A stretch of DNA of 34,582 nucleotides from a virus (lineage: Duplodnaviria; Heunggongvirae; Uroviricota; Caudoviricetes), in IMG/VR virus record IMGVR_UViG_2623620495_000015. One strand, written 5' to 3'. The notes under the pieces are model-generated. The model was not told the DNA's origin, ran no database searches, and worked only from the letters and a program-made list of their open reading frames with translations. Position numbers and translations under genes: made by a program. This document shows, in pieces, positions 2,297 through 24,483 of this stretch. Each line of letters begins with the position of its first letter. Positions within the stretch are counted from its first letter, which is position 1.

Positions 2297-3190
2297 ATGA
2301 GTTTAATTACGCAATTAAATGACGTAATGGCCCGTCGCGGCTATACGCAGACCCACGTAGCCCGTGCTATTGGGCGTAGTAACGCCGTTATTAACCAGTA
2401 TTTGCAGGGTAAATATCAGGGCGATATCGCTGATATCGAAGAGCGAATTTCTGCCTTTGTCAGCCGTGAACGGGAGAAAGAAAACAATCGCCGTGTTAAA
2501 GCAAATTTTGTTGCCACCAATATGGCTGCCAAAGGACTGGAAGTGCTGGCCTACGCTCACCTGGAATGTGAAATCTGTGTACTGTATGGCGCAGCAGGCC
2601 TTGGCAAAACAATGATTCTGCGTGAATACGCAGCCAGAAACCGGGATGCGGTCCTGATTGAGGCTGACCCGGGCTACACAGCCAGGACACTGCTTGAGGA
2701 GTTGTGCCGCCAGCTGGGGGTAAAGGTTCGCGGCAACATTCACGAACTGATTGATGCCTGTGTGCGCGAACTGGGTGATTCCGGTCGTCTGCTGATGGTG
2801 GACGAGGCTGAACTGCTACCCTATCGCGCACTGGAGGTTCTGCGCCGTCTGCATGACAAGGCGGGTATCGGGATTGTCCTGGCGGGTATGCCACGCCTTC
2901 TGATTAACCTCAAGGGGCGTCGTGGTGAGTTCGCCCAGTTATACAGCCGTGTTGCGCTGGCGCTTAACCTGGGCGACACGCTGTCGCAGGAAGATTTTAA
3001 CCAGATAGCCACAGAGCTGATGCCGGAAGCCGTTGAACCGGAAATCAGCGAGGCGCTTTACACGCGCTCGTTGGGTAATGCCCGCCGTCTGTTCAAACTG
3101 GCGCGCGGTGTGTACCGGATTTGTGATATCAGCGATGCCCCCGTCAGCGTGCAAGCTATTGATGATTTCGCAGAAATGTTAATTCACTGA
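2297..3190 (+). CDS. B: MuB-like AAA+ ATPase, transposition target DNA activator
   Basis: 297-aa ORF; Walker A GAAGLGKT; MVDEAE Walker B-like; N-terminal HTH-like segment; follows the transposase as in Mu. Confidence 0.85.
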   Translation: MSLITQLNDVMARRGYTQTHVARAIGRSNAVINQYLQGKYQGDIADIEERISAFVSREREKENNRRVKANFVATNMAAKGLEVLAYAHLECEICVLYGAAGLGKTMILREYAARNRDAVLIEADPGYTARTLLEELCRQLGVKVRGNIHELIDACVRELGDSGRLLMVDEAELLPYRALEVLRRLHDKAGIGIVLAGMPRLLINLKGRRGEFAQLYSRVALALNLGDTLSQEDFNQIATELMPEAVEPEISEALYTRSLGNARRLFKLARGVYRICDISDAPVSVQAIDDFAEMLIH

Positions 3191-3204: not shown

Positions 3205-3537
3205 ATGGAAAAAATGGCTCTCAGAAATGAAATCAGGGCACTCAGGAATATTGGTTGTCATGGGCGCGTTTATTTTGATGGAACCCCTGGTGAAATTATT
3301 CCGTTTGTTGATTGCCGCGTGCCGGGTGAACTGTACATTGATTTGTATTCCCGCGAACGGGAAATCAATGGAATCGGAAATACCAGCGATGACTGGGATG
3401 TTGATGAATGCTATATGCGATTAATGATTATCCCTTTTGAGCAGAATTTACAGGGGTTTCGCCGGGCTTATCGTCTTGCGCGTATGTGTGCCCGTCTTCC
3501 CCGTTATCAGCCACGGCTTGCGTTTGCACTCAGATAA
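3205..3537 (+). CDS. hypothetical early protein (110 aa), candidate inserted accessory gene
   Basis: ATG with GGGAG RBS 7 nt upstream; bracketed by an 18-bp direct repeat of the B 3' end. Confidence 0.5.
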   Translation: MEKMALRNEIRALRNIGCHGRVYFDGTPGEIIPFVDCRVPGELYIDLYSREREINGIGNTSDDWDVDECYMRLMIIPFEQNLQGFRRAYRLARMCARLPRYQPRLAFALR

Positions 3538-4031: not shown

Positions 4032-4060
4032 TCTGTAAATATCACTGAGGTAATTTAATT

Positions 4061-4705
4061 ATGACGACTGAAAATAAAGTTAAACAATATACGAAAAACC
4101 AGGTGACCGAAGGTTACTGGGTGGATGCCCGTGGCGTAATGACACCTGAAAGTCTGATTAAGGATATTGACCGCGACCGCGAGCAGCTGGTCGGTGAGAT
4201 TGTCGAACTGGTGATTGCTGCCTCCGCCTCGCTGCGTGATTTGAAACTGCGCGCGTTTGGCGATATTCAGGCATTTATTGACCTGTCGGCGGAGAAATAC
4301 GGCGCTGTGAAAGGCGGCAAAAAAGGCAATATCACGCTTTACAGCTTTGACGGGCGTTACAAGATTCAGCGCGCCATGCAGGACCGTATCGCGCTTGATG
4401 AACGCATTCAGACCGCGAAGGCGCTGATTGATGACTGTCTGGCTGACTGGACGGAAGGTGCACGCCCTGAAATTAAAGCCATCATCAGCGAGGCATTCAG
4501 CACGGACAAGGAAGGCAACATTAACACCGGGCGCGTTCTGGCTCTGCGTCGTCTCGATATTACGGAGGAACGCTGGGATAACGCCATGAAACTGATTGGT
4601 GAAGCCGTCCAGGTGGTTGGCAGCAGAAGCTATATCCGCGTGTATGAGCGCGTCGGTGATTCTGCTGAATACCGCGCAATCCCGCTTGATATTGCAGGGG
4701 TTTAA
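4061..4705 (+). CDS. hypothetical early protein (214 aa), possibly DUF3164-like
   Basis: GAGG RBS; mixed-charge globular composition; resembles a family seen in Mu-like prophages (recalled, unverified). A full-length antisense ORF (4055..4708) is judged a shadow. Confidence 0.55.
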   Translation: MTTENKVKQYTKNQVTEGYWVDARGVMTPESLIKDIDRDREQLVGEIVELVIAASASLRDLKLRAFGDIQAFIDLSAEKYGAVKGGKKGNITLYSFDGRYKIQRAMQDRIALDERIQTAKALIDDCLADWTEGARPEIKAIISEAFSTDKEGNINTGRVLALRRLDITEERWDNAMKLIGEAVQVVGSRSYIRVYERVGDSAEYRAIPLDIAGV

Positions 4706-4706
4706 C

Positions 4707-4940
4707 ATGCATCAGGATATCAAAGAGTACAGAGCCAGAAATAGTTGCGCGGCGTATTCGCTGGGCGCGTCCAGAGCAGAACAACGCGGCGATTATGCCG
4801 AAGCTGAAAAACTGTGGCGTAAGGTAGCACAAAGCCCGTGTAGTACCCTGCGCCGCATCTGGGCGGAACACCGGGCAGAGTTCTGTGCCAATGCTCACCT
4901 GAAAGGATGGAAGCCGCCTCATGAACGCGAAGAACTTTAA
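4707..4940 (+). CDS. small ANR-like regulator candidate (77 aa)
   Basis: ATG 2 nt after the upstream stop; pattern AE..G.Y.EAE.LW...W.E.RAEFC resembles small prophage ANR-family proteins (memory only). Confidence 0.4.
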   Translation: MHQDIKEYRARNSCAAYSLGASRAEQRGDYAEAEKLWRKVAQSPCSTLRRIWAEHRAEFCANAHLKGWKPPHEREEL

Positions 4941-5112
4941 TCAGTTATATCCGCCAGGAACTCGCTTCATGCACATTGCACACCCGGCACTGCGTGGTGG
5001 TCGTGTGGTGAAAACCGTTGCGCCAGCCAGAGATTTTAAATGTGGTTGTGTGGTTGAAATTAATGTCGAGCCTTATTTCGTAAAAGTCGAAACACTGAAA
5101 GCACCGCATTAA
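4921..5112 (+). CDS. hypothetical small protein (63 aa)
   Basis: ATG overlapping the end of the previous gene; no recognisable motif. Confidence 0.3.
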   Translation: MNAKNFNQLYPPGTRFMHIAHPALRGGRVVKTVAPARDFKCGCVVEINVEPYFVKVETLKAPH

Positions 5113-5142
5113 TTTAATTTGCTTTTAATTGTTATTTAAACC

Positions 5143-5174
5143 AGGCGTAAACACGCCAGGGCTGGCTTACGCCT
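5143..5174 (+). promoter_or_regulatory. conserved stem-loop module A upstream of gene 5194
   Basis: AGGCGTAA (5143-5150) pairs with TTACGCCT (5167-5174); loop contains GCCAGGGCTGGC; paralogous copy at 5769-5798. Confidence 0.5.
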
Positions 5175-5193
5175 GAATCAAGAGGATTTATAT

Positions 5194-5739
5194 ATGAAAG
5201 ATAAAGTCTGGGATTTTATTGTTACTCCGAAAGGTTTTGCTACCCGTAAATCTGTAGAGTTGGCCAATGTTACGTTATGGGCATCATCATTGCTGGGACG
5301 TCTGGGAGGACCCGGTAGTTTTATGGATGCGGTACTTAATGCCCAGATTGCCGGGAATGCTCTGGCCAGTAACGGGGCTTATATTCAGGGGGACTTGTTC
5401 GCCATGATGGCAAATGACACGGTTGCACTGTACCTCGCGACACGGAACATACTGACAAGAATATCCATGCAGTCATGTAGCGAGGGTATGGAAGACCTCC
5501 GGGACATTCTTGAAGGTGATTTGCTCACTATTTCAGGTGTGCAGGAATCCCTCCCGCGTCAGTTGCGGTTTATTGACCTGATGGAGTCATATAAAGATAA
5601 ACCTGATTTTTTTCATATTCGATTCAGCGGGATGGAACTGCTGGATGAATATTATTCGCTGGATTCGATTTCCCGTGATGTGAAGGCGTTTGTTAAGTCA
5701 GTTGATCGCCATTACCGGAAAGCTGAACGCTGTAGTTAA
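5194..5739 (+). CDS. hypothetical protein (181 aa)
   Basis: ATG with AAGAGG RBS; preceded by stem-loop module A; no family recognised. Confidence 0.55.
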   Translation: MKDKVWDFIVTPKGFATRKSVELANVTLWASSLLGRLGGPGSFMDAVLNAQIAGNALASNGAYIQGDLFAMMANDTVALYLATRNILTRISMQSCSEGMEDLRDILEGDLLTISGVQESLPRQLRFIDLMESYKDKPDFFHIRFSGMELLDEYYSLDSISRDVKAFVKSVDRHYRKAERCS

Positions 5740-5768
5740 TAAGTCTGTTTTTAATTTTATTTGTATAT

Positions 5769-5798
5769 GACGTAAACCAGTCAGGGCTGGCTTACGTC
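5769..5798 (+). promoter_or_regulatory. conserved stem-loop module B upstream of gene 5818
   Basis: GACGTAA (5769-5775) pairs with TTACGTC (5792-5798); same loop core CAGGGCTGGC; differs from module A by a compensatory G-C to A-T stem change. Confidence 0.5.
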
Positions 5799-5817
5799 TG
5801 AATAAGAGAAATTCATT

Positions 5818-6534
5818 ATGGAAAATAAAAGTAAATACATTGCCAGAATTAAAAAACTGTTACGCCTTGCCAGAGGAACATCAAGCCCGGAAGAAGCCGC
5901 TAACGCTATTGCAAAAGCCCAGGCATATATGCGCCAGTATGGTATCAGCGAAAACGACGCGGAATTGTTCGATATTCAGGAGGCTGCCAGCGCGGGTGCC
6001 CCCAGTAATGCTGTGATTTCGCCGCGCTATATGCATGTTCTGTGTAGTCTGGTCCGCAATGCCTTCGGGGTTGAATGTTATATCTCCTTTAAATATCTGG
6101 AATCTGGTTCACGTAAATGCTACGTGAAATTTTATGGACCTGGCAGCCGCCCGGAAATCGCTGCCTACGCGTTTGATGTGCTTTCCCGTCAGATGATGGC
6201 AGAGCGCAGGAAATATCAGGATAAACACTGCAAACGTTGCAGCCCGTCCACGCGGGTGGCCCGTGGTGACCAGTTCTGCGAAGGCTGGGCCTTTGGTGCC
6301 CGTGACGTGATTACGGTGTATGACGTCTCCCCGGAAGAGAAAGGTCGTATTGAGCTTTACCGGCAGAGCCTGCACAGCTCTAAAGGGCTGCGCGAAGGGA
6401 ATATGCGCACAGCTAAAGCGTGTCGGGGTGCAGAGTTTGCCGCTACTGCGGGTTTTATCGCCGGGAAAAACGCCAGACTGCATCAGGGGGTTAATGGTCA
6501 GAGCAACAGACCGCTGGCACTGGGGAGGGGATAA
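5818..6534 (+). CDS. hypothetical protein with DUF2786-like N-terminus and Cys-containing C-terminal region (238 aa)
   Basis: N-terminus IARIKKLLRLARGTSSPEEAANAIAKAQAYMRQYGI resembles DUF2786 (memory); C-terminal part has HCKRC...C motif. Confidence 0.55.
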   Translation: MENKSKYIARIKKLLRLARGTSSPEEAANAIAKAQAYMRQYGISENDAELFDIQEAASAGAPSNAVISPRYMHVLCSLVRNAFGVECYISFKYLESGSRKCYVKFYGPGSRPEIAAYAFDVLSRQMMAERRKYQDKHCKRCSPSTRVARGDQFCEGWAFGARDVITVYDVSPEEKGRIELYRQSLHSSKGLREGNMRTAKACRGAEFAATAGFIAGKNARLHQGVNGQSNRPLALGRG

Positions 6535-8997: not shown

Positions 8998-9016
8998 TTA
9001 AATAATAACCAATAAC

Positions 9017-9040
9017 AGACCAAAACATATGTTTTGGTCT
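9017..9040. repeat. perfect 24-bp palindrome AGACCAAAACATATGTTTTGGTCT, with a third half-site GTTTTGGTC at 9053-9061
   Basis: Read directly from the sequence; lies just upstream of the ATG at 9065. Confidence 0.7.
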
Positions 9041-9064
9041 GCCAAAAGTAGTGTTTTGGTCATT

Positions 9065-9343
9065 ATGAAGATTGAACAAATCGGAATGGCAGCCTTCCGG
9101 CAACAGGCTGAAAGCGGTGGCGTGGATGAGTTCGTCGTGCAGCGGTTCGGTGGTGTATATCACCTCTTCGCTGTGAATCGCCGCGCCGGGGTGTCCTATT
9201 TTCTACAGGAACGCCGTGGCGATTACAAGACGTGGCTGTCTCTTGATCGTGCCGCTGCGTTCCTGTCAGGGATTGGCGTTTCACGTTTTACCGTGCGTTT
9301 TGAGGATAACAAACATGCTGAAAAAGATGATCGGAGCCATTAA
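9065..9343 (+). CDS. hypothetical protein (92 aa)
   Basis: Internal ATG of track ORF 9029..9343; overlaps the gemA start by 29 nt. Confidence 0.4.
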   Translation: MKIEQIGMAAFRQQAESGGVDEFVVQRFGGVYHLFAVNRRAGVSYFLQERRGDYKTWLSLDRAAAFLSGIGVSRFTVRFEDNKHAEKDDRSH

Positions 9344-9713
9344 AGCCGGTCAGGCGTATCTGGGGTGGGATGATGCCCTTTATCGCCAGACGCTGGCCCG
9401 CCTGACAGGTAAAACCAGCACCACTCGCTGCAACCTCGATGAACTGCGCATCATCCGGGAATATATGCACGAACAGGGATTCCCGCGTAAAGCGCCCACC
9501 GGTAAAGGTCGCCGTCCCCGTGTTGCAATGAGCAGAAAATCGGTATTATCAAAAATTGAAGCGTTGCTGGCTGATGCCGGTCGTTCCTGGGGGTATGCGG
9601 AAGGACTGGCATCTCACATGTATAAGCAACATGTGATCGAATGGCTGACGGATGAACAGCTTTTCGGGGTGATGGTGGCGCTGGTTAAAGATTCAAGAAG
9701 GAGGAGTAAATGA
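9315..9713 (+). CDS. gemA: GemA-like protein (Mu gp16 family)
   Basis: ATG with GAGG RBS (track ORF 9216..9713 begins earlier at a non-ATG codon); MLKKMIGAIKAGQAYLGWDDALYRQTLARLTGKTS... matches the Mu gp16/GemA family from memory. Confidence 0.65.
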   Translation: MLKKMIGAIKAGQAYLGWDDALYRQTLARLTGKTSTTRCNLDELRIIREYMHEQGFPRKAPTGKGRRPRVAMSRKSVLSKIEALLADAGRSWGYAEGLASHMYKQHVIEWLTDEQLFGVMVALVKDSRRRSK

Positions 9714-10213
9714 TTAAAAAACGGTATTTTCTTTTAGTGGCGTTCATTTTGTCTTTTCCTGCCGTTGCTGAATGGCACACATGGGTACAAAAAGATGCTT
9801 TTGATGATCAACAAACAGCCATGATGGTGGGTATTGGAACAATGGATTTTGGGATTGCTTTAGACTGTTCGAATGACTCACTATTTGCTGGTATTACAAA
9901 AGAAACAGATAAAGTTAACATTGCGTTATTCGGTTCATCAAAAGATTTAATATTTAGGATAGACGAATTTCCAGCAGTAAAGACCACAGGGGTACTCGCT
10001 GCACGAAATGAAAAAATGTATATCTATAAAATAGAGGACAAACAAAAAATCAAAGAGTTGTTATCTTATCTTCGAAAAGCCCAAAAACGTGTTTTAGCTG
10101 GTGTAAAAGAACCGAGTGAAGAACGAGGCGCATCGTTTAATGTAACACCGACAGGTTCAACAACCGCTGTTAATAAATTTATCAAAGCCTGTAACATTAA
10201 GATTCCAGAGTAA
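9710..10213 (+). CDS. secreted/periplasmic protein of unknown function (167 aa), AT-rich moron
   Basis: Strong RBS GAAGGAGGAG; Sec-type signal peptide MIKKRYFLLVAFILSFPAVA/EW; GC content visibly far below flanking phage genes; own terminator downstream. Confidence 0.6.
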   Translation: MIKKRYFLLVAFILSFPAVAEWHTWVQKDAFDDQQTAMMVGIGTMDFGIALDCSNDSLFAGITKETDKVNIALFGSSKDLIFRIDEFPAVKTTGVLAARNEKMYIYKIEDKQKIKELLSYLRKAQKRVLAGVKEPSEERGASFNVTPTGSTTAVNKFIKACNIKIPE

Positions 10214-10223
10214 CTTAATAGCC

Positions 10224-10249
10224 GCCCCTGCCATGTAGGGGCTTTTTTT
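10224..10249 (+). terminator. intrinsic terminator after the secreted-protein gene
   Basis: GCCCCT (10224-10229), loop GCCATGT, AGGGGC (10237-10242), then T7 run (10243-10249). Confidence 0.6.
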
Positions 10250-10255
10250 GTGGTC

Positions 10256-10283
10256 TGTACAGGCGATCATGTATGGCTATAAT
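10256..10283 (+). promoter_or_regulatory. candidate sigma70 promoter upstream of the Mor/C-family gene
   Basis: -10 TATAAT at 10278-10283; 16-nt spacer; -35-like TGTACA at 10256-10261. Confidence 0.35.
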
Positions 10284-10312: not shown

Positions 10313-10780
10313 ATGCAGACCTTCAGTGAAACAGATCTTCGCGATGCGCAGGCACTGCTGCCCGATTCCGTGCAGCAACTGATTAGCGTGATTGGCTTCC
10401 CCGCCCTGACCCGGTTGATTCGTTCTTTTGGTGGCGTGACGTTAAGTGGTAAAACCGGCGCACACGCCGAACGCACCGGCGGTGTCCATGCCCTGTTACA
10501 TGACGTGCTGACCGAAGACGAAATCAACAAACTGATCCGCTTTCTTGGCGGTGCTCCGTTTTACATCCCCCGTTGCGATCATGCGTTACGTGCCCTGCGT
10601 AACACCCGTTTTATGGCTGATTTACAGCAGCATGTAAAAGACGGGTGCTCACACCGGCAGGCGCTGGCGCTGCTCTGTCCCCGCTACGGGATTTCAGACC
10701 GGTATGCATGGCAACTGATACACCGACGACAAAAACAGACTTCGCTGAAAAGCCCCACCCAGGTGGGGCTTTTTGATTAA
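10313..10780 (+). CDS. Mor/C-family transcriptional activator
   Basis: 155-aa ORF with GGAG RBS; C-terminal region with FYIPR motif and HTH-like segment resembles Mu Mor/C (memory); sits after gemA as in Mu. Confidence 0.7.
   Translation: MQTFSETDLRDAQALLPDSVQQLISVIGFPALTRLIRSFGGVTLSGKTGAHAERTGGVHALLHDVLTEDEINKLIRFLGGAPFYIPRCDHALRALRNTRFMADLQQHVKDGCSHRQALALLCPRYGISDRYAWQLIHRRQKQTSLKSPTQVGLFD
10751..10775 (+). terminator. intrinsic terminator overlapping the 3' end of the Mor/C-family gene
   Basis: GCCCCAC (10752-10758), loop CCAG, GTGGGGC (10763-10769), then T5. Confidence 0.5.
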
Positions 10781-21032: not shown

Positions 21033-21374
21033 ATGGAAAAGGTGATTGAAATTACCGCCCGCCGTGAGGGTTTTCGCCGCTGCGGTGTGGCACACAGCGC
21101 AACCACGAAGGAATGGCCTGCGGATGCGTTCACCCCGGAACAGCTGGCGGTGCTGAAGGCTGACCCCATGCTGATTGTGGTGGAGCGCGATAAAGCGTCC
21201 GGCCAGAACGACGCGGCCCGGGGTGATGAGCTGGCCGCACAGCTGGATGCCGAGCGTCAGAAAGTCAGCGAACTGACGGCGCAACTGGAAGAAGAACGCC
21301 AGAAAGTCAGTGAACTGACCGCACAGCTGAACGCCGCACAGAAAACAAAAAAAGCGGACAAAAAGGAGAAGTAA
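21033..21374 (+). CDS. Mu gp35-like protein with internal tandem repeat
   Basis: 113 aa; position matches Mu gp35; contains 2 x 42-bp repeat encoding ERQKVSELTAQL. Confidence 0.5.
   Translation: MEKVIEITARREGFRRCGVAHSATTKEWPADAFTPEQLAVLKADPMLIVVERDKASGQNDAARGDELAAQLDAERQKVSELTAQLEEERQKVSELTAQLNAAQKTKKADKKEK
21252..21335 (+). repeat. tandem 42-bp in-frame repeat (2 copies) inside the gp35-like gene
   Basis: Copies differ at several mostly synonymous positions. Confidence 0.8.
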
Positions 21375-24108: not shown

Positions 24109-24483
24109 ATGTCTCTGCATGAATACATTGGCTCGATTGTGCTGGAGGTGGACAGCCAGGAAATCGAGATCACCGACCTTGATGTTCAGATCAACACCGG
24201 GCGAAAACTGGTCAAGACCATGAACAAAACCGGCAGGGCCAAAGGATTTGCCCGGGGCATTGGCACCTATGAACTGTCTGTTTCGGCGGTGATCCCTGAT
24301 ACCAACGAGCCGGACTGGGAAAATCTGGAAGGTGTGAAAATCTCGCTGTACCCGCTCAGTAAAAGCGGCAAACGCACCTCCTATCTGGACTGCTTCACAA
24401 CCGAAGTGGGTGAGAAATACACCGTCGATAATGAAGCGAAAATTGATATCAAACTGGCTGCACTCAGGAAGGTGACAGGATGA
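24109..24483 (+). CDS. tail tube protein (Mu M/gp40-like)
   Basis: 124-aa ORF with AAGGAG RBS directly after the sheath gene. Confidence 0.75.
   Translation: MSLHEYIGSIVLEVDSQEIEITDLDVQINTGRKLVKTMNKTGRAKGFARGIGTYELSVSAVIPDTNEPDWENLEGVKISLYPLSKSGKRTSYLDCFTTEVGEKYTVDNEAKIDIKLAALRKVTG

Follow-up and report, generated by a model that had tools for sequence, protein, structure and literature searches.

REP elements, e.g., the one between malE and malF, are intercistronic stem-loops that stabilise upstream mRNA segments. They are host elements with hundreds of chromosomal copies, GTAG/CTAC feet and RAYT transposases. The PeSL promoter/stem-loop cassettes of T4-type phages and the "boundary sequences" of lambdoid phages are short conserved regulatory modules that flank variable open reading frames (ORFs) and show apparent modular shuffling. 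In the record of coliphage 186 (NC_001317), the depositors annotated positions 24384-24412 as "terminator tR1", one of several regional terminators that are anti-terminated in early lytic growth. Here, we analyse an intergenic hairpin module that is present twice in the Mu-like prophage of IMG/VR record IMGVR_UViG_2623620495_000015 (34,582 nucleotides (nt), hereafter the window) and that has kin in phage Mu and in 186 tR1. Intercistronic hairpins and leaky terminators in phage early operons are a well-known kind of element, and the module brings no new principle.

Like REP elements, the module lies between co-transcribed genes as a GC-rich hairpin that no U-tract follows, and its sequence is conserved among copies. 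It differs from REPs and their BIME arrangements in its rarity: it is found at 1-4 places per genome in 59 of 5426 complete Escherichia coli genomes, and exactly twice in the window. It differs from the PeSL cassettes in the order of its parts and in the phage family that carries it, and no sigma-70 promoter is detectable in the two gaps that hold it, 5113-5193 and 5740-5817, although a weak AT-rich promoter is possible. We tentatively propose, with somewhat less than even confidence, that the module acts as an RNA hairpin of the sense strand, punctuating the polycistronic early mRNA and serving at the same time as a joint for cassette exchange.

The two gaps are homologous across their entire length (~75 nt). 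Their local alignment scored 39, against 8.7 ± 1.5 (maximum 18) in 2000 dinucleotide shuffles, and no other position of the window gave a match to the modules with a comparable score. This bears out the original prediction of two paralogous modules. The identity of about 85% over 45 base pairs (bp) that it gave is right for the best-conserved core, from the hairpin start through TGAAT (30 of 35 positions identical); the homology itself is longer, with a mean column identity of 83% across ~100 columns. The exact 15-mer CAGGGCTGGCTTACG occurs in the window only at 5157 and 5782, which alone is not improbable (by our own estimate, ~0.5 such single repeats are expected in 34.6 kb). Both copies, A and B, have the same layout: an AT-rich tract, a 30-nt hairpin, TGAAT, a Shine-Dalgarno sequence and an ATG. 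The stop codons of the upstream genes lie 29-31 nt before the hairpins, which end 20 nt (copy A) and 19 nt (copy B) before the ATG. Hairpin A folds with a 9+4 bp stem at -18.8 kcal/mol and hairpin B with a 7+5 bp stem at -16.0 kcal/mol. A covariance-model search of the window returned exactly these two copies, both on the sense strand (scores in Table 1). The same arrangement, including the variant hairpin of copy B, is also present in NCBI assemblies and is therefore a stably inherited state.

The hairpin was next examined across its family, in an ungapped alignment of 30 distinct variants that includes phage Mu. The model consists of an outer stem (positions 1-7/24-30), a mismatch at 8-23, an inner stem (9-13/18-22) and a tetraloop. 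Over the 30 variants, this 12-pair model was 86.7% paired and seven of the 12 pairs had changed on both sides; slid pairing registers reached only 23-40%. None of 500 shuffles matched the observed structure values, a statistic that overstates independence because many of the sequences are related. The compensatory stem change reported between the window copies is real: pair 2-29 is G-C in hairpin A and A-U in hairpin B, and in one relative (L200) it is G.U, intermediate between the two states. At pair 11-20, the usual C x U mismatch of the family is replaced by A-U in hairpin B. RNAalifold, run on 31 sequences with 30-nt flanks, recovered the hairpin independently and gave no conserved pairing in the flanks, so that the ribosome-binding site is not occluded. 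This was the covariance check that had been proposed for the claim of selection on structure, and the covariation, extending to phage Mu, argues that the hairpin is indeed selected as a structure. Two other foldings were discarded: the first inner-helix register that RNAfold gave for copy A is unsupported by the family, and a GGCG/CGCC mini-hairpin in the Mu-type copies had a probability below 0.03 and covariation no better than chance.

The specific roles suggested with the original prediction did not hold up as well as the structure. A target of RNase III of the T7 R-site type would call for about two turns (roughly 20 bp) of largely continuous helix; the helix here is irregular and only 12-13 bp long, with a break at 8-23 and frequently also at 10-21 and 11-20, and the suggestion is unsupported. 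The same applies to a translational repressor acting through occlusion of the Shine-Dalgarno sequence, since the consensus fold leaves both flanks open. Sequestration of this sequence by extended flank pairing does appear in the single-sequence fold of copy B, but it is not conserved and we rejected it. An RfaH ops site, a sigma-54 promoter, an IHF site, a CsrA site and mimicry of 16S rRNA were also considered and dropped for poor sequence fit; for CsrA, only Mu and a few variants have GGA in the loop, and for 16S rRNA an 8-mer match is expected by chance.

The compensated pairs, together with the G.U intermediates, speak for a single strand folded on itself and against a double-stranded operator. 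A DNA-level element would be a promoter, AT-rich and possibly curved, whose start site carries a palindromic operator, and it would drive the cassette genes independently of the early promoter. The AT-rich upstream tract fits this idea, with TTTAA motifs about one helical turn apart and, in many relatives, TAAAAT-like hexamers at its end, as does the outer stem, which is a perfect inverted repeat. However, a consensus scan found no sigma-70-like site in either window spacer, the -35 matches being poor, which leaves the previously suggested promoter unsupported. Furthermore, the compensatory changes and G.U intermediates favour base pairing over two half-sites, the interior of the hairpin is asymmetric, and its orientation is fixed: it is always sense to the operon, including in the second window copy, in Mu and in the P2-like phages. 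We regard a DNA-level element as very unlikely.

Among well-supported pairs, wobbles possible only on the sense strand outnumber those possible only on the antisense strand by 8 to 1. Some features point the other way. The conserved A8 x C23 mismatch becomes a G.U pair on the antisense strand, whose fold is usually the more stable (-18, range to -22, vs -14 kcal/mol). The minus-strand hairpin, followed by the complement of the upstream A-rich tract, might thus terminate antisense transcription; 4-5 U stand in the 9 nt after it in 82 of the 115 contexts in which we found the hairpin (see below), with a run of five in 28. Yet the window copies are poor in this respect, with 4 U (A) and 2 U (B) in 9 nt, and the terminator scan reports neither. 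There are no minus-strand genes or promoters nearby, and several variants carry sense-only wobble pairs. An antisense terminator is accordingly a highly improbable function, and the sense-strand RNA is, with moderate confidence, most likely the acting form.

As for termination on the sense strand, both hairpins are GC-rich stem-loops shortly 3' of a gene, at -16 to -19 kcal/mol. What is missing is a U-tract immediately 3' of the stem, for which at least about 5 U in 8-9 nt would be expected: TGAATCAAG and TGAATAAGA follow the window stems, with 2 U in 9 nt after copy A and 2-3 after copy B, and the family ranges from 0 to 4 U, with T runs of at most 3. The terminator scan reports neither window hairpin, yet it detects a canonical terminator at 10224. 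The view that these hairpins are not classic terminators is thus supported.

An element with a U-tract exists nonetheless among their kin. A bacterial-genome scan revealed a second family in P2/186-like prophages, which we found in 95 phage records, upstream of a DUF2732 gene. Its member in coliphage 186 is tR1. The first 17 nt of 186 tR1, GGCGTAAACCCGCCGGG, are identical to the Mu-like consensus; by our own count, copy A matches this core at 15 of 17 positions and copy B at 12 of 17. The remaining 13 nt of the 186 element can be aligned with the Mu type, and the AACCGAAATTAAA in the AT-rich tract upstream of it is common to some Mu-like copies. Like the modules, 186 tR1 lies in the sole sizeable gap of an early lytic operon, with an AT-rich tract before it and a Shine-Dalgarno sequence and ATG after it. 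The two types differ in how they close. The 186 type folds a short GGCG/CGCC hairpin, which in 186 itself extends to CUUGGCG/CGCCGGG (a 7-bp stem, about -9 kcal/mol), and continues with CATTCTTTT, a U-tract. The Mu type has GCTGGCTTACGCC in place of the U-tract, and this segment pairs with the 5' arm: TTACGCC closes a 7-bp outer stem with GGCGTAA, and the long hairpin dominates the ensemble (P > 0.95). Positions 5-7 vary in the 186-type family and never in Mu-type copies, which fits because their pairing with 24-26 exists in the Mu type only. The variation of the 186 type falls in the 6-nt loop. The proteins flanking elements of the two types showed no homology when compared. Given this kinship, and given that ordinary U-tract terminators are used elsewhere in the phage, we regard the modules as relatives of a known terminator that lack its defining U-tract.

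Phage Mu itself (NC_000929) carries a homologous hairpin, GGCGCGATACGTCAGGAGATTGCTCGCGCC, at 6368-6397 in the gap between gam and gp11, which is not annotated in the record. It shares with the modules its length of 30 nt, the logic of its position, an AT-rich upstream tract and TGAA after the stem, and it keeps their loop core CGTCAGG. Its outer stem, GGCGCGA/TCGCGCC, differs from the GGCGTAA/TTACGCC of Mu-like copies only by two compensated pairs. It also differs in its upstream gene, which is gam, and in its loop, which reads AGGAG.

The search for further copies that had been called for was carried out with pattern scans of IMG/VR and similarity searches. On Mu-like contigs it yielded 115 distinct sequence contexts of the hairpin, in addition to the E. 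coli genomes mentioned above, in which every copy whose context was examined lies inside a Mu-like prophage. A short hairpin query also found it in Pseudomonas phage VW-6B. The consensus of the Mu type is GGCGTAAACCCG[CT]C[AG]GG-N6-[CT]TTACGCC. Across the family, 29-32 nt separate the hairpin from the preceding stop codon and 12-26 nt from the following start codon, and W-R-AAT is conserved immediately 3' of it throughout. The hairpin is identical at 27-30 of its 30 positions while the adjoining 3' end of the upstream gene is heavily diverged. The original prediction had missed this wide conservation, anchored to the upstream gene, as well as the presence of the hairpin in Mu and the identity of its 5' half with 186 tR1. 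A blastn search of the 1.7-kb region against the phage collection gave no match, and Rfam 15 gave no match to the window at the gathering threshold (the best sub-threshold match had 22 bits and an E-value of 0.9). Among the matches listed in the bacterial-genome scan, whose pattern had 15 specified bases, most were chance matches. A match in the Salmonella phage S.Kent was rejected as a GC-rich chance match within other sequence. The literature that we searched held no description of the element, the sole prior record found being the tR1 annotation in phage 186; we came across no account of the closed Mu-type form that lacks a U-tract, of its occurrence in Mu, of its relation to 186 tR1 or of its role at the boundary of a hypervariable region.

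The genes on the two sides of the hairpin behave very differently. Over the 115 contexts, the upstream gene is a homologue of the 63-amino-acid (aa) gene of the window in 91 and of its 181-aa gene in 11, whereas the downstream gene belongs to 23 unrelated families, among which the DUF2786/DUF7168 family accounts for 32. Comparison of the window with its close E. coli relatives shows that entire cassettes are gained or lost precisely at the modules, the breakpoints falling at the hairpin/TGAAT; this agrees with the association with gene cassettes that had been suggested. One of these differences is a DUF7448 gene, with a different hairpin of its own, between module A and the 181-aa gene, and another is a small ORF behind module B. 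The module is thus both strongly constrained and a recurrent site of gene exchange.

At 4701-4724 of locus L001, behind the DUF7448 cassette, a third hairpin, GGCGCAG-GTAAACAGGT-CTGCGCC, is followed by TGAAT; it retains GGCG, TAAAC and CGCC, and presents TAAAC in its loop. In locus L008 (~3357-3420), the second hairpin is followed by the leader and the first six codons (MKDKVW) of the 181-aa gene, to which an unrelated ORF of 123 aa is joined. This fusion is a recombination joint within the leader and N-terminus.

One might see in the module a dedicated recombination site akin to integron attC, i.e., folded single-stranded DNA cut by a recombinase of the phage or host. Copies that bracket a cassette, hypervariable downstream content and conservation of the hairpin across phage families would all be expected of it. 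The attC cores (RYYYAAC/GTTRRRY) are nevertheless lacking: the 5' end reads GGCGTAAAC and the 3' end GCTTACGCC, without GTTRRRY. The annotations of related loci list no tyrosine or HUH recombinase and no integron integrase near the module (the window itself was not searched for them). Moreover, the breakpoints are not confined to the hairpin but extend over the leader and first codons, a better fit to ordinary homologous or short-homology recombination. We consider a dedicated recombination site the least probable of the explanations weighed here.

How the module might act as RNA can be outlined from its position and fold. In the sense early transcript it would form a free-standing hairpin with single-stranded A/U-rich flanks on both sides, 12-26 nt before the next start codon. 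It would punctuate the long polycistronic mRNA at one of the few junctions without translational coupling. There it could generate the 3' end of the conserved block upstream (ner-A-B ... DUF3164-ANR-63 aa) or shield that end, by leaky non-canonical termination or pausing, or by blocking 3'-5' exonucleases after cleavage in the A/U-rich flanks. The next cassette gene would get its own, structurally insulated ribosome-binding site, and the outcome may be a graded, lower or delayed expression of the variable accessory genes downstream. The near-invariant 30-75 nt would double as a homology patch for cassette insertion, deletion and exchange, which would account for the copies on both sides of the 181-aa gene. 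While the repeat, the covarying hairpin, its placement, its homologies and the cassette variation are observed, its action as RNA and any effect on transcript ends, stability or translation are inferred. We count the kinship with an element of transcript ends in favour of this punctuation, because 17 nt are identical to 186 tR1 and the place in the early operon is equivalent.

Several points weigh against punctuation by a sense-strand RNA structure, besides the relatedness of the aligned variants and the antisense pairing described above. Efficient intrinsic termination is unlikely for window copies without a U-tract. Because the DNA patterns used to find most family members specify part of the hairpin in advance, divergent stems are under-represented. 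Finally, sequence conservation in the outer stem and in the 5' loop half goes far beyond the needs of structure alone, which hints at recognition by a specific factor.

Such an RNA-binding factor, of the host or the phage, would be presented with AAACCCGYCRGG by the hairpin, e.g., in nut-like antitermination loading or as a translational or processing operator. The 5' arm and the 5' half of the loop are nearly invariant, the 3' half of the loop varying freely, and the same 17 nt recur in unrelated phage families with non-homologous flanking proteins. The 186 record states that the regional terminators are antiterminated, and a boxA-like CTCTTTAA stands just upstream in some relatives. The window spacers, however, read TTGTTATTTAAACCA and TTTTATTTGTATAT and contain no boxA (CGCTCTTA / GCTCTTTAA). 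The hairpin is not boxB-like (boxB having a 5-bp stem and a GNRA-like pentaloop), and Pfam and PHROG gave no N-like (arginine-rich) protein among the neighbours, although no search aimed at such a protein was made. A loading site would not usually come as a pair 600 nt apart, and the variation of the 186 type sits in the very loop that would be presented. We therefore judge a recognition site of this kind to be unlikely.

A purely translational device is another explanation, and one we find rather unlikely. The hairpin would insulate the ribosome-binding site or, with its A/U-rich flanks, provide a standby or S1-binding platform for any cassette behind it. Several features would suit this: a good Shine-Dalgarno sequence and a start codon always follow the hairpin, the latter after 12-26 nt; its flanks are unstructured and A/U-rich; 23 unrelated genes use it; and elsewhere in the operon almost every gene overlaps or abuts its neighbour. 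It would leave unexplained why sequence is conserved beyond stability and why the element is kin to an annotated terminator; in addition, the module is tied to the gene before it rather than to the gene behind it. Several of these alternatives could coexist with the punctuation of the early mRNA that we favour.

A broader idea, which we offer as a speculation with little probability, is that the element is a portable RNA signal of otherwise unrelated enterobacterial temperate phages (Mu, Mu-like and P2/186-like). It would be read by one common factor, e.g., the antitermination or processing machinery implied by the 186 annotation, and would also be a standard connector for accessory or defence-type cassettes. 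If the punctuation reading that we favour is right, one small RNA element would organise the expression of the semi-essential early region of Mu and its prophage relatives, separating the conserved transposition block from hypervariable accessory genes and possibly timing the arrival of the Mor activator. We found no paper that connects the gam-gp11 gap of Mu, the modules of Mu-like prophages and 186 tR1. The module would also provide a concrete, sequence-defined joint for the exchange of accessory cassettes within and between temperate phage families.

The modules lie in the early region of the prophage. Downstream of a gene for a MuB-type AAA ATPase (2297-3190) comes a string of small plus-strand early genes, most of which overlap or abut. 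A DUF3164 gene (4061-4705), an ANR-like gene and the 63-aa gene precede the modules, and GemA-like and Mor-like genes follow further downstream. The two gaps that hold the modules are the only sizeable ones in this part of the operon, and the 181-aa gene lies between them (Table 1). Pfam and PHROG searches with ten neighbouring proteins assigned no function to any of them.

Table 1. Coordinates of the two modules and of the genes that adjoin them in the window.
Feature	Position	Strand	Remarks
63-aa early gene	4921..5112	+	phrog_5591 (PHROG match); usual upstream anchor of the module
AT-rich spacer, module A	5113..5143	+	TTTAA-type motifs; unstructured in the consensus fold; homologous to 5740-5768
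Hairpin A	5144..5173	+	GGCGTAA-ACACGCCAGGGCTGGC-TTACGCC; stem extendable to 5142-5175; covariance-model match of 46.5 bits
Leader A	5174..5193	+	TGAAT, Shine-Dalgarno AAGAGGA (5180-5186), ATG at 5194
181-aa gene, function unknown	5194..5739	+	phrog_7741; cassette between both modules
AT-rich spacer, module B	5740..5768	+	Aligns with the spacer of module A
Hairpin B	5769..5798	+	GACGTAA-ACCAGTCAGGGCTGGC-TTACGTC; uninterrupted 5-bp inner helix; covariance-model match of 42.9 bits
Leader B	5799..5817	+	TGAAT, Shine-Dalgarno AAGAGA (5804-5809), ATG at 5818
DUF2786/DUF7168 gene	5818..6534	+	Pfam; its family is the most frequent downstream neighbour of the module

Some other features of the window and its relatives were noted. 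The canonical intrinsic terminator at 10224-10249 consists of GCCCCTGCCATGTAGGGGC followed by TTTTTTT and stands after ORF 9710-10213. Directly after it (within 10224-10283), and before the Mor-like ORF 10313-10780, is the best promoter-like site of the region, TGTACA-16-TATAAT; Mor may thus have a promoter of its own in this phage. In locus L016 (~9100-9131, minus orientation) and three other loci, a hairpin GCGGCC...GGCCGC stands between AATAAAAAA on its 5' side and TGATT plus a Shine-Dalgarno sequence on its 3' side. It lies ~2.8 kb upstream of the module, by position at what would be the transposase A-B junction, and on the opposite strand it is a canonical terminator.

On the minus strand of the window, a 217-aa ORF at 4055-4708 nearly mirrors the DUF3164 gene and is most likely a shadow ORF. 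A perfect 26-bp palindrome at 9016-9041 (CAGACCAAAACAT followed by ATGTTTTGGTCTG), in a short gap ahead of ORF 9029-9343, appears in the terminator scan only as a weak minus-strand terminator and looks like an operator. Three tandem 42-nt repeats at 21228-21353, of which the second and third copies are 74% and 62% identical to the first, are presumably in-frame within a late structural gene.

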